From Thermotogota bacterium (GTDB taxonomy: Bacteria; Thermotogota; Thermotogae; Petrotogales; Petrotogaceae), in NCBI GenBank assembly GCA_051748045.1, contig JBNJGY010000015.1, forward strand, positions 1 through 36,370: DNA of 36,370 nucleotides, in the 5' to 3' direction. This document shows, in pieces, positions 5,688 through 18,186 of this stretch (position 1 is the stretch's first letter; every line of letters starts with the position of its first letter). Made by a program: the position numbers and the translations under genes. The notes beneath the pieces are model-generated. The model ran no database searches, was not told the DNA's origin, and saw nothing but the letters and a program-made list of their open reading frames with translations.

Positions 5688-6649
5688 TATTTTTCCAAAG
5701 CCTCATTTATTTTTTGAACTGTTATTTTTTTTAGTTCTTCAAGTGGTTTGCTTGATGAAAAACCTGCAGCTCTTGGATGTCCCCCACCGCCCATTTCAAA
5801 AGCGATTTTAGACACATCAAACCATTCTTTTGATCTCATAGAAACATGAAAAACTCCTTTTTCATGTTCATTGAACATAACAGCAATTTCTACTCCCTTT
5901 AAGGATCTTAAGTCACCAACAAAAGGAGGTATGTTTTTTGGCAATATATCATATTTTTCAATCATTTCTAAAGTCACATGAGAAATCGCTAATCTTTTAT
6001 CATTATAAAACTCTAATTGATTTACAACATCTTTTAGAAGCAAAAGATTTTCTATAGGTTTGTTTTCAAGTACAGAATTTGTTATTTTACTCAACTCAGC
6101 ACCTTTTTCAATTAAATCAGCTGCGTCTCTAAAAACTTTTGTGTCAGTATTTGAATATCTAAAAAAACCTGTGTCTGTTGCTATACCAGTCAAATTCATA
6201 GTAGCCAAATCTTTATTGTATTTAACATTCAAGTTTTCTAAAATCTCTTTTACCATTTGAGCAGTTGACGCATAGTTTGAATCAACCCAATTAATATGGC
6301 CAAATTGTGTGTTTGTGGCATGATGATCAACAACAACAACTCTTCTAAAATCAAATAATTCTTGTACTCTTCCTACTCTATCAGGAGAAGAAGCATCAAC
6401 AATAATTATTAAATCTGAAGGGTTTTCTTTTGCACAATCAAAATTTCTAATAAATTGTTTAACAAATTTGAATTCCTCTAAATATTCAGGTATTTCATCA
6501 TCTATTATTCCAACAACTTTTTTACCATGCATTGTCAACCCAAGCACTAATGAAGCTACAGAACTTATGTCATCTCCATCAGGCATTATGTGTCCAGCAA
6601 TCATTATAGTTTCAGCTTTATTTATCTCGTCGATTATCTTATTTATCAT
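5687..6649 (-). CDS. nrnA: DHH/DHHA1 phosphoesterase (NrnA-like nanoRNase / linear dinucleotide phosphodiesterase)
   Basis: GHIMPDGD, IVD, VVDHH, GIATDTGFF, SMRS, GGGGHPRAAG. Confidence 0.9.
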   Translation of the reverse strand: MINKIIDEINKAETIMIAGHIMPDGDDISSVASLVLGLTMHGKKVVGIIDDEIPEYLEEFKFVKQFIRNFDCAKENPSDLIIIVDASSPDRVGRVQELFDFRRVVVVDHHATNTQFGHINWVDSNYASTAQMVKEILENLNVKYNKDLATMNLTGIATDTGFFRYSNTDTKVFRDAADLIEKGAELSKITNSVLENKPIENLLLLKDVVNQLEFYNDKRLAISHVTLEMIEKYDILPKNIPPFVGDLRSLKGVEIAVMFNEHEKGVFHVSMRSKEWFDVSKIAFEMGGGGHPRAAGFSSSKPLEELKKITVQKINEALEK

Positions 6650-14069: not shown

Positions 14070-14525
14070 ATGGCTTTATCAGTTTTTACTTTTTTATTTA
14101 AAGATTTTGAATTTTTTAAACTTGCTTATGATATTAGAGATAAAGTTTTTATAAGAGAGCAAAATGTGCCAAAAGAAGAAGAATTAGATGGATTAGACCC
14201 TGCTTGTATTCATTTTTTAGGTTTATATGAAAATACCCCTGTTGCAACTGCAAGGGTTAGATATATAGATAAGGATACATGGAAGGTTGAAAGAGTTGCT
14301 GTTTTAAAAGAATATAGAAATAAAGGCTTTGGAAAAGAAATGATGGAAAATATTGAAAATGAAGCTCATAAAAAGAAAGTTTCAAAACTAATCTTGAATT
14401 CTCAAAAAAATGCTATTGATTTTTATAAATCCTTAAATTATAAATCGATATCAGATGATTTCTTTTATGAAGCAGGAATACCACACATAAAAATGCAAAA
14501 AATATTAAAAGAGAGCCAAAACTAA
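14070..14525 (+). CDS. GNAT-family N-acetyltransferase (ElaA/YjcF-like)
   Basis: IRDKVFIREQ, RVAVLKEYRNKGFG acetyl-CoA motif, FYKSLNY, EAGIPHIKM. Confidence 0.92.
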   Translation: MALSVFTFLFKDFEFFKLAYDIRDKVFIREQNVPKEEELDGLDPACIHFLGLYENTPVATARVRYIDKDTWKVERVAVLKEYRNKGFGKEMMENIENEAHKKKVSKLILNSQKNAIDFYKSLNYKSISDDFFYEAGIPHIKMQKILKESQN

Positions 14526-14534
14526 TTGGCTCTC
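14511..14534. terminator. Hairpin between convergent GNAT and CoA-disulfide reductase genes
   Basis: GAGAGCCAA-aactaa-TTGGCTCTC, with A-rich left and T-rich right flanks. Confidence 0.7.
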
Positions 14535-14540
14535 ATATTT

Positions 14541-16205
14541 TTATGAATTTTTGAGCATAACCTTTGCTTTTTTTGCATTAGCATATACAGTGAATCCACC
14601 GTTTAAATTTTTCACTTTAAATCCGTTTAATTTGAGTATTCTGTATGCAAAGTATCCCCTCATACCTAGTGTGCAATATGTTATATATGTTTTATTCTTA
14701 TCCAAGTTGTCTATTTTTTCTCTTAATTTTGGGAATGGAATATTAATCTCATTTTTTAACCCAATAACGTTTTTATCATTTATTTCATCTGGATTTCTTA
14801 CATCTATTAATACAGAATTTTCTAACTCTTCTAATTGATCCCATTCAATTGTTTCTATTTCACCATTCAATATATTTTCTCCGACATATCCTGCAACGTT
14901 TAGGGGATCTTTCGCTGATCCAAATGGAGGAGCATAAGCAAAATCTATATCTGTTAAATCGCTTACTGTCATATTCCCACTAATTGCAGTAGCAAGAACA
15001 TCTATTCTTTTATCCACACCATTTTGACCTACTACCTGACCTCCAAGAATTTCTCCTTCTTTATTGAAAAGTATTTTTGTTGTTAAAAGAGCTGCACCTG
15101 GGTAATAACCAGCATGATCTTTTGAATTAGTTATCGAGGAAATGTATTCTACTCCCATAGCTTGTAACTGCTTTTCATTCATTCCAGTTGAACCAATCGC
15201 CATATTGAATACTTTTGCGATAGATGTTCCAATACTCCCTTTATACTCTTCTTTATTATTTTTCATAATATTATTTGCAACTATTCTAGCTTGTTTATTT
15301 GCTGGTGCAGCTAAAGGAATATTGGTTCTTTCACCACTTATTAGATGCTCAATCTCAACAGCGTCTCCAACTGCAAATATATTTTTATCTGACGTTCTCA
15401 TTTGTCTATCAACATATATGCCTTTTTTACCAATTTTTAATCCTGCTTCTATTGCTAATTTTAATTCTCCTCTAACTCCAATTGAAAGAATTACCATATC
15501 AGTTTCTACTGATTTTCCATTTGAAAGCTTAATAGAATATTTTTTTTCGCCTTCTATTTTTTCTATAGCATTACCTAATATCAAGTTAACTCCGTGTTCG
15601 GTCATATGATTTTGAATTATAGATGCCACTTCAAAATCCACTGTATTCATTATTTGATCAGCCATTTCTACTAAAGAAACTCTAATCCCTCTCTCAGTTA
15701 AATTTTCAGCCATTTCTACACCAATGAATCCGCCACCAGCAACAACTGCATTTTTTACATTATTTTTTTCTATATAGTCTATTATTTTATCCATATCATT
15801 GACATTTCTTAAAGTTTTTACTCCTTCTTTGTCGAACCCTTCTACAGGTGGAACAAAAGGATTAGCTCCAGGAGATAGTATCAAATAATCGTATTCTAAA
15901 TTATAATCTTCCAGATTTTTTCTATCTCTTGCTAAGATTTTTTTATTTTCTTTATCAATAGATAAAGCCTCGGTATGGTTTCTAACTTCTACATTTATTT
16001 TTTTTAAAAATGACTCTGGTGTTTCCAACAATAATTCTTCTCTTGATTCGATTGTACCCCCTATATGATAAGGTAACCCACAATTAGCAAAACTAATATG
16101 TTCTCCCCTTTCGATAACAATTATTTCCGCATCTTCAGATAATCTTCTTAATCTAGCTGCTGCTGTAGCTCCACCAGCAACTCCACCTACTATTACTATT
16201 TTCAT
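14541..16205 (-). CDS. CoA-disulfide reductase / NADH-persulfide reductase with C-terminal rhodanese domain (CDR-RHD, Npsr-like)
   Basis: GGVAGG, SFANCGLPY redox Cys, GGGFIGVEMAE, YAPPF, rhodanese IDVR...YCTLGMRG...NLNGG. Confidence 0.92.
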   Translation of the reverse strand: MKIVIVGGVAGGATAAARLRRLSEDAEIIVIERGEHISFANCGLPYHIGGTIESREELLLETPESFLKKINVEVRNHTEALSIDKENKKILARDRKNLEDYNLEYDYLILSPGANPFVPPVEGFDKEGVKTLRNVNDMDKIIDYIEKNNVKNAVVAGGGFIGVEMAENLTERGIRVSLVEMADQIMNTVDFEVASIIQNHMTEHGVNLILGNAIEKIEGEKKYSIKLSNGKSVETDMVILSIGVRGELKLAIEAGLKIGKKGIYVDRQMRTSDKNIFAVGDAVEIEHLISGERTNIPLAAPANKQARIVANNIMKNNKEEYKGSIGTSIAKVFNMAIGSTGMNEKQLQAMGVEYISSITNSKDHAGYYPGAALLTTKILFNKEGEILGGQVVGQNGVDKRIDVLATAISGNMTVSDLTDIDFAYAPPFGSAKDPLNVAGYVGENILNGEIETIEWDQLEELENSVLIDVRNPDEINDKNVIGLKNEINIPFPKLREKIDNLDKNKTYITYCTLGMRGYFAYRILKLNGFKVKNLNGGFTVYANAKKAKVMLKNS

Positions 16206-16663
16206 TTTCTCACCTCTTCAAATATTTTATTTTCAATTTTATTTTTTAATAAATCTAACTCTTCATTAATTTTTTTTAAATCATCTTTATCTTGCCAATC
16301 TGCAAAAGAAAATAACTTGATTAATTCATTTATCGTATTTCTAAATTCTTTTGAAACGTTGGCACAATTACATTCTGATATAAGTTTTATTTTGTTAAAA
16401 TAATCATTAGCCTGATCTCCATTATCAAGTTTTTCTATGTATTTTTTACCCTCACTAGTAAGATAATATTCTTTTTTTCTTCCTTTAACTTCAAAATCGA
16501 TTATCCCCCTATTATTAAGATCTTTTAATTTTGGATATATAGAGCCAGAGGATATTGTGATATTTTTATCTTTCGAACTTTTAATAAAGTCATATCCTGA
16601 AGCTTTTTTATTTTCTGATAAAAACTTCAATATGTAAGTTTCTACAATACTTTTTTTATTCAT
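16202..16663 (-). CDS. PadR-family transcriptional regulator with CxC motif
   Basis: SGYDF, SSGSIYPKLKDL...G, RKKEYYLTSEG; start reassigned to ATG 16663 behind AGAGGAG; ATGA overlap with the reductase. Confidence 0.88.
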   Translation of the reverse strand: MNKKSIVETYILKFLSENKKASGYDFIKSSKDKNITISSGSIYPKLKDLNNRGIIDFEVKGRKKEYYLTSEGKKYIEKLDNGDQANDYFNKIKLISECNCANVSKEFRNTINELIKLFSFADWQDKDDLKKINEELDLLKNKIENKIFEEVRK

Positions 16664-16695
16664 GATTTTCTCCTCTTGTGAAATTGTTCTCATTA

Positions 16696-16731
16696 TTGAT
16701 ATATCGAAATTGATATATCAAATTCGATATA
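16696..16731. promoter_or_regulatory. Tandem palindromic operator upstream of padR
   Basis: 16700-16731 is a 32-bp inverted repeat with one mismatched pair centred on TGATATATCA; also a 14-bp period repeat TTGATATATC. Confidence 0.75.
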
Positions 16732-16741
16732 ATTTTCTCAT

Positions 16742-16773
16742 AAAAAAAATAACTATTCATAACTGAATAGTTA
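16742..16773 (-). terminator. Intrinsic terminator-like hairpin upstream of the padR promoter
   Basis: Perfect 10-bp stem TAACTATTCA/TGAATAGTTA followed by U8 on the minus strand. Confidence 0.65.
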
Positions 16774-16789
16774 ACTTATCCTAACCTAT
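16771..16789. promoter_or_regulatory. Candidate DtxR/IdeR/SirR-type operator
   Basis: TTAACTTATCCTAACCTAT matches TTAGGTTAGCCTAACCTAA at 15 of 19 positions. Confidence 0.35.
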
Positions 16790-16826
16790 TATTACAAAGC
16801 ATAATAATTAATTCACAAACAATTAT

Positions 16827-16851
16827 AAAAACCCCCCTAAATAGGGAGGTT
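16827..16851 (-). terminator. Intrinsic terminator after the FAD oxidoreductase
   Basis: Minus strand AACCTCCCTA-TT-TAGGGGGGTT followed by T run. Confidence 0.8.
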
Positions 16852-16857
16852 AAATTA

Positions 16858-18150
16858 TTAAAGTGTATTAGAAATTAAATAACCGTGAGCAGCAGCGTAT
16901 GTAATTGATCTTGTCCATCCAGATGAGTCACCAATTATTTTTAAATTTTCATATAAACTATTATCAATTTTATTTCCATAGAACTTGACTTCCACACCAT
17001 ATAATAGGTTATCAGGATATGTTATTCCTGGAATAACTTTATTTAACTTTTCCATAAAATCTATAATTGATTCAACTGTTTTCCTAGGAAAAATAAGATT
17101 CAAGTCACCAAGAATAAAAGAGTTTTCTAATAAAGTTGGCTCAACTCTTCCAATTTTCTTGGTTCTATTGGAATTATAAAAATCTTCATATGTTTGAAGA
17201 ATAACTTTTTCTCCACCAGCTAATATATTAGAAAGCTTTGAGATATAAGATCCATAACCTATCGGATCGTTAAAAGGCTGTGTAAATGAATGAGTGACTA
17301 AAATTGCAAAATTAGTATTTTTTGTTTTTTGTTTTGCTTTAGCGTGACCATTTACAGTAACAAAGTCATCATATTTTTCAAGAGTTACTTCTCCAGAAGG
17401 GTTATTACAAAAAGTTCTAACCATATAACCTGTTTTTGTTTTTAACCTCAATTTGAATTCATACATTTTATCATTTAATTCCTGAACAACATGATCTGGT
17501 AATTCAAATCTAACTCCTAGGTCAACTTTATTATTAGATAAAACTATATCAGGCTCTTGATCTATTAAGGACTTAACTAGTTTATGACCTCTTCTTCCAA
17601 CAGCTAATATTAAGTGGTCGTAGTTTTTGTTTATATTGTTTATAGTATAATGATTTTCAAATTTATTTATTTTTTCTATTTTTGAGTTGAAATGAAAATT
17701 TATATTTTTATTTTCTTCAAATTCTTTATATATTTTTTTTACTGTATCTGCTAAAGCATCAGTTCCTATATGAAAAAATTCAGATTTTACTGGTTCGAAC
17801 CCTTCATCATAAAATTTTTTAAATAATGTTTCATCATCAAAAGACAAACCATGTTCTATATCATCTTTATATAATTTTTTACCGTTGTCATAAGAAATCA
17901 TATCTGCCTTTTCTAAAAAGAATTCAACAATTTCTCTTTGAATTTTTGTGGGAATTTCAAGGTCTCCTCCCATATTTTTTGAAATAAATATTTTTCCATC
18001 ATACTTCAATCCACCAAATCCAGCATTATCTATACTATCTCCCATTTCATATACATCAATTTCATAATCATTAATATTTCCATTATCAATCATTCCTTTT
18101 AAAAAACCTATAGCAGCTGCGCCAAATCCTACTAAAGCAACTTTTTTCAT
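16858..18150 (-). CDS. Uncharacterised NAD(P)/FAD-dependent oxidoreductase (COG2509-like)
   Basis: VGFGAA FAD motif, DGK, HIGTD, AVGRRG, RTFCNNPSG, VNGH, NTNFAIL, YGVEVKFY; start moved to ATG 18150 behind GGAGGTG. Confidence 0.85.
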   Translation of the reverse strand: MKKVALVGFGAAAIGFLKGMIDNGNINDYEIDVYEMGDSIDNAGFGGLKYDGKIFISKNMGGDLEIPTKIQREIVEFFLEKADMISYDNGKKLYKDDIEHGLSFDDETLFKKFYDEGFEPVKSEFFHIGTDALADTVKKIYKEFEENKNINFHFNSKIEKINKFENHYTINNINKNYDHLILAVGRRGHKLVKSLIDQEPDIVLSNNKVDLGVRFELPDHVVQELNDKMYEFKLRLKTKTGYMVRTFCNNPSGEVTLEKYDDFVTVNGHAKAKQKTKNTNFAILVTHSFTQPFNDPIGYGSYISKLSNILAGGEKVILQTYEDFYNSNRTKKIGRVEPTLLENSFILGDLNLIFPRKTVESIIDFMEKLNKVIPGITYPDNLLYGVEVKFYGNKIDNSLYENLKIIGDSSGWTRSITYAAAHGYLISNTL

Positions 18151-18186
18151 AAAATACACCTCCGAGAAGATTTAAAAACACAAATC

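Follow-up and report, generated by a model that had tools for sequence, protein, structure and literature searches.

A PadR-family regulator with an invariant CxC motif beside a CoA-disulfide-reductase-type rhodanese gene in Thermotogota: a candidate thiol-based, sulfur-responsive repressor

A pair of genes, padR and cdr-rhd, is described here from a 36,370-nt stretch of DNA of a Thermotogota bacterium of the family Petrotogaceae (GenBank assembly GCA_051748045.1, contig JBNJGY010000015.1, positions 1 to 36,370 of the forward strand; this whole stretch is referred to as the window). The first gene encodes a small winged-helix protein of the PadR family whose only cysteines form a CxC motif, and the second a flavoprotein of the CoA-disulfide reductase (CDR, or CoADR) type that ends in a rhodanese (RHD) domain. 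We propose that PadR is an autoregulated repressor in which the CxC motif, situated at a hinge, would serve as a thiol switch for sulfane sulfur and would induce a persulfide/polysulfide reductase that removes the signal, a reading to which we assign a probability of about 0.5. Overall, the analysis provides a well-founded and testable hypothesis of a thiol-based, sulfur-responsive repressor, which would represent a new family and a new motif among such sensors. A preliminary description of the same DNA, made from its letters alone, had already suggested that a thiol-switch PadR controls sulfur reduction or detoxification; all the elements that it reported were recovered, with three small corrections, and conservation of the CxC motif, its tie to CDR-RHD genes and conservation of the operator fit that suggestion, which is thus partly supported.

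The CxC motif and the gene that follows it

Full-length relatives of the window PadR fall into two groups, one with CxC at a single alignment column (as CNC, CDC, CEC, CSC, CQC or CIC) and one with no cysteine there, and the two are parted in the phylogenetic tree by one branch (support 95/93). The motif is invariant in all 15 Thermotogota loci of the first group, which come from nine genera and three families, and a CDR homologue (48–93 % identity) lies directly after padR in 14 of them (eight genera, three families). None of 16 non-CxC loci lies beside a CDR gene; an ABC ATPase and an ABC-2-type permease are encoded downstream of the non-CxC padR in 12/12 loci with ORFs (open reading frames) listed (L034–L043, L046), a listing that stops short of the neighbours of L044, L045, L047 and L048. 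Loci L034–L048 are 15 of the sister-clade loci, of families f7 and f10. These counts derive from a profile search of 151 Thermotogota genomes that returned 61 places, 31 of which were analysed (30 given loci and the paralogue L020), followed by two more (G052:C1 and G047:C7); the other 28, all at 107 bits or less, were set aside, as were the weak matches L010–L019 and L021, and L005–L009 duplicate L023, L032, L026, L030 and L027. Counted from the enzyme, full-length CDR-rhodanese genes occur in 21 of the 151 genomes (22 loci), and a CxC-PadR is encoded upstream in 14 of these genomes (15 loci). A CxC representative from outside the genome set, P0009, was chosen prospectively, and its locus (L091) holds an FAD-dependent gene, padR and the CDR gene in that order; the single-protein metagenome scan that supplied it also returned L092, a weak match of 29 residues that is irrelevant, and a scan of genome contigs gave one close relative only. 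Control of sulfane-sulfur genes by a PadR protein is thus suggested by adjacency.

The cysteines stand out within the protein itself. An alignment of 12 CxC sequences (18–81 % identity to the query) contains 14 invariant columns, C98 and C100 among them, and beyond residue 66 the invariant residues are C98, C100 and W123 only. The tryptophan is common to the CxC and non-CxC groups and is nearly invariant across the family; the two cysteines are the sole clade-specific invariant residues. When 1.84 billion representative sequences were scanned exhaustively with HMMER, 214 matched at E ≤ 1e-3 and only 20 of these at E ≤ 1e-10, and in a profile search of a 5.8-billion-protein collection all 16 clusters scoring at least 162 bits carry CxC, the next match (96 bits) being without it. 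The CxC clade appears from these searches to be a small, hitherto undescribed branch of the PadR family. Conservation of the motif in PadR proteins encoded beside CDR-RHD genes, which the preliminary description had put forward as a check on its proposal, was found throughout the clade, even in members with as little as 18–30 % identity.

At the remaining CxC locus, on contig C27 of genome G051 (L049 1–7544, L063 9372–14135), a CxC-PadR gene and an operator of the same type precede a cluster for a membrane complex in place of a CDR gene. The cluster runs MnhE, MrpF, MnhG, MbhD, MnhB, a NuoK-like subunit and two antiporter-M subunits, and continues with NuoH-, NuoB-, NuoC- and NuoD-like subunits, a ferredoxin/GltD-like flavoprotein and rubrerythrin. 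The NuoD-like subunit ends in DFCPPEIDR and has no C-terminal CxxC, a feature that we take to mark an MBX/MBS-like complex, and for this reason the complex is assigned to that type and not to the hydrogenases.

Two further CDR-rhodanese genes in the phylum (L087 113–3186 and L088, in G021 and G007) are more distant, at 44 % identity, have no PadR gene beside them and are preceded by a gene for a membrane protein of the YeeE/YedE type (Sulf_transp).

Gene pair, operator and promoter

The ORF of padR extends at full length over 16202..16693 on the minus strand. Translation most likely begins at ATG 16663 (MNKK...) and not at ATG 16693, because all eight close homologues are 153 aa long and begin MNKK or MNNK at this point, because GAGGAG lies just 5' of that ATG and because the upstream ATG falls within a hexamer resembling a -10 box. 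The stop codon of padR (TGA) and the ATG of cdr-rhd overlap as ATGA at 16202–16205, as the preliminary description had noted, and a start–stop overlap or near-abutment of the two genes recurs in relatives. Coordinates are collected in Table 1.

Table 1. Positions in the window of the two genes and of the predicted signals around them
Feature	Position	Strand	Description
padR	16202..16663	-	153 aa, PadR-family winged-helix protein, putative repressor; invariant C98-x-C100 and W123
C98-N-C100 codons	16366..16374	-	sole two cysteines; loop between helix 83–97 and dimerisation helices 105–152
cdr-rhd	14541..16205	-	CoA-disulfide-reductase-type flavoprotein with C-terminal rhodanese, 554 aa
Operator (predicted)	16700..16731	.	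32-bp palindrome; ATATC-N6-GATATATC-N6-GATAT boxes, 14-bp period
Best promoter-like site	16692..16721	-	TTGATA-18-AATAAT inside the operator; consensus match only
Intrinsic terminator of the upstream FAD-dependent gene	16830..16851	-	5' limit of the padR unit
Two-way terminator hairpin	14511..14534	.	between cdr-rhd and a convergent GNAT gene; 3' limit of the unit

The operator-like palindrome that the preliminary description had reported upstream of padR was recovered by a repeat search as two 16-nt arms without spacer, 94 % complementary, and comparison with relatives indicates that it is better seen as three ATATC/GATAT boxes 14 bp apart, or as two abutting 16-bp palindromes. The pattern ATATC-N6-GATATATC-N6-GATAT occurs once in the window, at the padR promoter, with no match in 100 shuffles, and at up to two mismatches it is found in the 2.41-Mb genome only at this promoter. 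Upstream of the CxC padR genes it is present with at most three mismatches of 18 in 15/15 loci, at most two in 13 and none in seven; mononucleotide shuffles of those upstream regions gave three mismatches or fewer in 4 of 6200. In the sister non-CxC clade the operator has the same architecture, mostly with AGATATATCT-type boxes replacing CGATATATCG. Since the operator pattern, at up to two mismatches, is found nowhere else in the genome, the predicted regulon would consist of the padR–cdr-rhd operon alone. The exact half-pattern occurs four times, as three overlapping copies at the padR promoter and one within a coding region.

Candidates for a wider regulon were considered and rejected. At three mismatches the pattern is matched at 11 other places, against six for a reversed control, and we attribute these matches to chance; contig C42 holds the exact half-site that falls inside a coding region; and the site on contig C62 is a different palindrome. 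This last, a long AT-rich palindrome at 6155–6196 of C62 in the window genome (G000), lies 5' of two genes, one for a TetR-looking regulator and one of 570 aa.

The putative promoter, TTGATA-18-AATAAT, matches the consensus at 10/12 positions and has the joint-best score in the region. Two relatives (L003, L004) have TTGAT(A/G)-N18-TATAAT at the same place, and in relatives from other genera the operator directly follows or overlaps a TATAAT-like box. We infer that the palindrome is a repressor site that would occlude the promoter. Between the terminator of the upstream gene and this promoter lies an inverted repeat whose 10-nt arms pair perfectly around a 4-nt loop (16750–16773), followed by T8 (the T-run reaching to about 16741), with an RNA hairpin fold z of -2.87; in the Geotoga relative L004 the arms are changed yet still complementary. 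The hairpin might act as an additional terminator or serve for attenuation.

Contigs from four metatranscriptome runs of one study, labelled salt lake, match cdr-rhd over 14620–16187 with at least 95 % identity, in nearly all cases at least 99 %, and contigs from two of the four match padR over 16216–16508; none of them crosses the padR–cdr junction and none falls on 16559–17685. As contigs and not reads, they carry no information on co-transcription, level or induction, and DNA carry-over is possible.

Predicted properties of the regulator and the enzyme

The nearest named protein to the window PadR comes from Geotoga petraea (79 % identity), a member of a genus that reduces elemental sulfur, and this likeness points to a Geotoga-like source within Thermotogota. 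The Pfam family PadR (PF03551) matches the window ORF at 37.2 bits (cut-off 27) over residues 21–87 of its long form. At E ≤ 0.01 the Pfam scan returned PadR, FUR and HTH_45, and no CsoR, ArsR or Fis-type domain was found by it. A profile of the clade matches 47 PadR-type chains in the PDB. The AlphaFold2 model (mean predicted local distance difference test score, pLDDT, 82.4) comprises helices 6–18, 23–32 and 39–51, a wing at 55–68 and helices 70–81 and 83–97, and then a loop (98–104), helix 105–120, a short loop with W123 and helix 126–152. Its best fold match in Foldseek is Bacillus subtilis PadR bound to DNA (5x11; probability 1.00, TMq 0.51), and its C-terminal part, a two-helix hairpin of about 50 residues, is intermediate between the two PadR subfamilies. 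A search of the ESM Atlas gave only generic archaeal PadR clusters of 146–168 aa and no model of the window PadR. According to the preliminary description the only cysteines form ECNCA just after the winged-helix domain; they are indeed the only two and lie in that sequence, and in the model the motif comes two helices later, in loop 98–104, the least confident part of the prediction (mean pLDDT about 57–75).

The homodimer model scored 0.45 against 0.01 for the best control; among reference cases, 20 of 30 solved homo-pairs and a single one of 23 lone chains reached the mark. Because solved PadR dimers exist, this result may owe something to resemblance with structures already known. Contact agreement between runs was at least 69 %, and the pLDDT of the partner was 69–70. 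The modelled interface takes in residues 101–151 and so begins just after CxC, and W123 contacts residues 103, 104, 107 and 146 of the other copy. The models therefore place CxC at a hinge that would join the DNA-binding half to the dimerisation hairpin, where it is plausible that a covalent change could affect how far apart the two recognition helices lie.

A single chain of cdr-rhd contains Pyr_redox_2 (9.8e-62), Pyr_redox_dim (4.3e-14) and Rhodanese (3.2e-13). Its best solved relatives are the CoADR-rhodanese of Bacillus anthracis (3icr, E = 1.5e-164), the persulfide reductase Npsr of Shewanella (3nta, E = 7.5e-159) and a CoA-persulfide reductase (8a56, E = 6.6e-149), and both the redox cysteine of SFANCGLPY and the rhodanese cysteine of C(T/Q)LGMRG align with 3icr and 3nta. 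The NCBIfam model for CoA-disulfide reductase, TIGR03385, gives 480.6 bits, below its equivalog cut-off of 578.8; the window protein would accordingly be classed as a relative of plain CoADR and not as an equivalog. We predict that it is an NAD(P)H-dependent persulfide/polysulfide reductase. The genome encodes two further CDR/NADH oxidase (Nox) paralogues, both without rhodanese, and neither bears the operator.

The corresponding enzyme is about 810 aa long in nine of the 14 genomes with a CxC-PadR and a CDR gene, and Pfam analysis of five such proteins found Pyr_redox_2, Rhodanese, TusA and DrsE_2 in one chain. The short form (551–555 aa) occurs in the three Geotoga-like genomes and in G009 and G046. 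Rhodanese, TusA and DsrE modules are carriers of persulfide sulfur, and the link to sulfur suggested by the target genes is strengthened by the TusA and DsrE fusions, the YeeE-type neighbour of the more distant genes and the MBX-like locus. The content of the target genes argues for sulfur as the signal.

Proposed mechanism, alternatives and comparison with known systems

In the mechanism that we propose, padR and cdr-rhd would make up an operon of two genes under its own repression. In its reduced state, dimeric PadR would bind the three-box operator over the sole promoter and keep the operon off, probably with one dimer on each of two abutting ATATC-N6-GATAT palindromes. The sensor would be the C98-x-C100 pair in the flexible loop between the DNA-binding half and the dimerisation helices, where sulfane sulfur (persulfides or polysulfides derived from elemental sulfur or thiosulfate) would modify or bridge both thiols, and this modification would shift the hinge so that the DNA is released. 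The NAD(P)H- and CoA-dependent persulfide/polysulfide reductase thus induced would convert sulfane sulfur to H2S, and formation of H2S would remove the signal and close a negative feedback loop.

A number of observations weigh against this proposal. The separation of the two groups by one branch implies a single origin of the motif together with its enzyme association, so that the locus counts are not independent, and the association of CxC with CDR appears to be one evolutionary event that was then maintained and not one that arose repeatedly; with terminal branches of up to about two changes per site, the counts speak for long maintenance. The homologue 6pfz was deposited under the name NADH oxidase, and enzymes of the CoADR/Nox type can act on O2 or CoA disulfide too. 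The window enzyme itself is without TusA and DsrE, and neither was found elsewhere in the window genome with the query used. No PadR gene stands beside the enzyme gene in six of the 21 CDR-RHD genomes, and in G047 the PadR encoded beside CDR-RHD (L085 3138–3572) has the CxC region deleted: relative to a relative of 57 % identity, 50 residues are missing in frame, from the second wing strand through CxC, an absence that could stem from natural loss of the repressor or from faulty assembly. The metatranscriptome contigs attest to the sequence in RNA libraries and do not show regulation. Lastly, Mbx clusters are reported in Mesotoga, and the MBX of Thermotogota has been proposed to be a ferredoxin:NAD(P) oxidoreductase and not a sulfur reductase (10.1101/322537).

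The motif might respond to thiol oxidation in general (O2, H2O2 or disulfide stress) in what is a strict anaerobe, the enzyme acting mainly as an NADH oxidase or as a CoA-disulfide reductase that restores the thiol pool. A vicinal CxC is able to form a disulfide, the enzyme does match TIGR03385, 6ruz is deposited as an NADH oxidase like 6pfz, and rubrerythrin closes the cluster behind the CxC-PadR of G051. We nevertheless consider a general oxidant switch unlikely, since the rhodanese domain is retained in the enzymes checked, the sulfane-sulfur carriers TusA and DsrE are present in all five long-form enzymes scanned and nine of the 14 genomes carry the long form, and the rhodanese-free CDR/Nox paralogues are the ones without the operator. 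Alternatively the cysteines may be structural or secondary, and the DNA may be released when a small molecule such as CoA persulfide, CoA disulfide or an organic sulfur compound occupies a pocket around W123 where the two subunits meet. Classical PadR and LmrR proteins usually work by binding ligands, and both the near invariance of W123 and its predicted contacts across the dimer are in keeping with such a pocket; the tryptophan is, however, equally conserved in the sister clade linked to ABC transporters and cannot explain a clade-specific target, and the residues peculiar to the clade are the two cysteines, so that we regard release by a ligand alone as quite improbable.

Metals offer a further explanation, in which the two CxC motifs of a dimer would bind Cu, Zn or Cd, or an iron–sulfur cluster, and the protein would respond either to a metal or to changes in the redox state of such a cluster. 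CxC binds metals in winged-helix repressors such as CopY, a mycobacterial PadR-like protein binds cadmium, and a dimer, with its four cysteines, could accommodate a cluster. On the other hand, metal-efflux and metal-homeostasis genes are present at 0/16 CxC loci examined, and apart from the CxC pair the clade conserves no His, Asp, Glu or Cys that could act as a ligand; residues 98 and 100 are also absent from the contacts between chains that the dimer model gives with confidence, a weak point given that a residue which the model does not name is simply uncertain. A metal or cluster sensor therefore seems to us very unlikely.

To our knowledge, sensors of reactive sulfur belong to few regulator families, almost all of them from sulfide-oxidising or host-associated bacteria, and we know of no account of how elemental sulfur or polysulfide is sensed in anaerobic sulfur-reducing bacteria such as Thermotogota. 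Among the titles and abstracts listed by searches of the open-access literature, a coverage that does not extend to subscription journals, no PadR-type sulfur or redox sensor was found. A close parallel in logic is CstR and its cst operon, which includes the CoA-persulfide reductase of Enterococcus faecalis, with a small di- or oligomeric repressor, a conserved cysteine pair and neighbouring rhodanese and CoADR-rhodanese genes that detoxify persulfides; the two cysteines of CstR form di- to tetrasulfide bridges. The fold of CstR is, however, the four-helix bundle of CsoR, unrelated to the PadR winged helix; its cysteines are distant in sequence and on different subunits, whereas those of the window PadR are vicinal and in one loop; and its operator is different. 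SqrR and BigR of the ArsR family, together with FisR, follow a similar logic in which thiol modification leads to derepression or activation of genes for handling sulfide or persulfide. Their ArsR- and Fis-type domains were not detected in the window regulator, the best Pfam match of which is PadR, and their hosts are sulfide oxidisers whereas those of CxC-PadR are anaerobic sulfur reducers. With C98 and C100 the window PadR has the conserved cysteine pair expected of a persulfide sensor, and it may work like CstR, SqrR or BigR although its sequence places it in neither the CsoR nor the ArsR family. B. subtilis PadR (5x11) and LmrR share with it the family and fold and, as predicted for the window PadR, the dimer formed by C-terminal helices, the palindromic operator and control of a neighbouring gene; these proteins sense phenolic acids or drugs non-covalently, and no redox-active cysteine pair is described in them.

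The archaeal answer to the sensing of elemental sulfur is SurR, a winged-helix protein that carries its CxxC motif within the DNA-binding domain at the N-terminus and also activates hydrogenase genes. The window PadR differs in being bacterial and of the PadR family, in having CxC in a hinge loop and in having its operator, within the genome, only at its own operon. In Thermococcales, SurR is a cysteine redox switch responsive to S0 that derepresses MBX and the CoADR homologue NSR, both S0-induced (PMC4463584). The CxC-PadR clade shares these two kinds of target, CDR-rhodanese at 14 loci and the MBX-like cluster at one. It is tempting to speculate that the clade is a bacterial counterpart of SurR, a switch responsive to sulfur for which Thermotogota recruited a PadR protein, although we hold this tentatively and at somewhat less than even odds. 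Such a switch would turn on cytoplasmic reduction of sulfane sulfur by CDR-rhodanese with or without TusA/DsrE or, in one lineage, an MBX-like complex, and its CxC would be selective for sulfane sulfur, a plain disulfide being strained and a tri- or tetrasulfide ring relaxed. On this speculative view the clade would bring a new chemical way of telling persulfides from ordinary oxidants and a fourth structural family of sulfur sensors.

The regulator, a protein of 153 aa with only two cysteines, a single operator and a single predicted target operon, is a small and tractable candidate that can be tested directly. If the proposed sulfur-responsive repression is correct, the CxC switch would be a new sensing motif for the PadR family, otherwise known for binding ligands non-covalently, and could provide a compact sulfur-responsive genetic part.

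Two neighbouring features may be added. Directly upstream of the padR unit, at 16858–18159 and separated from padR by a terminator, the window encodes a 433-aa FAD-dependent protein with a PF21688 C-terminal domain; the same gene is present in the metagenome locus L091 (2048–3349) and in the Geotoga relative L062 (7686–8987). Genome G009 holds, in addition to the CxC copy beside its CDR-rhodanese gene, the non-CxC paralogue L020 (1080–1938 of contig C24), which lies elsewhere, divergent from a 96-aa ORF that looks CsoR/RcnR-like by eye and upstream of an FtsH-like gene.

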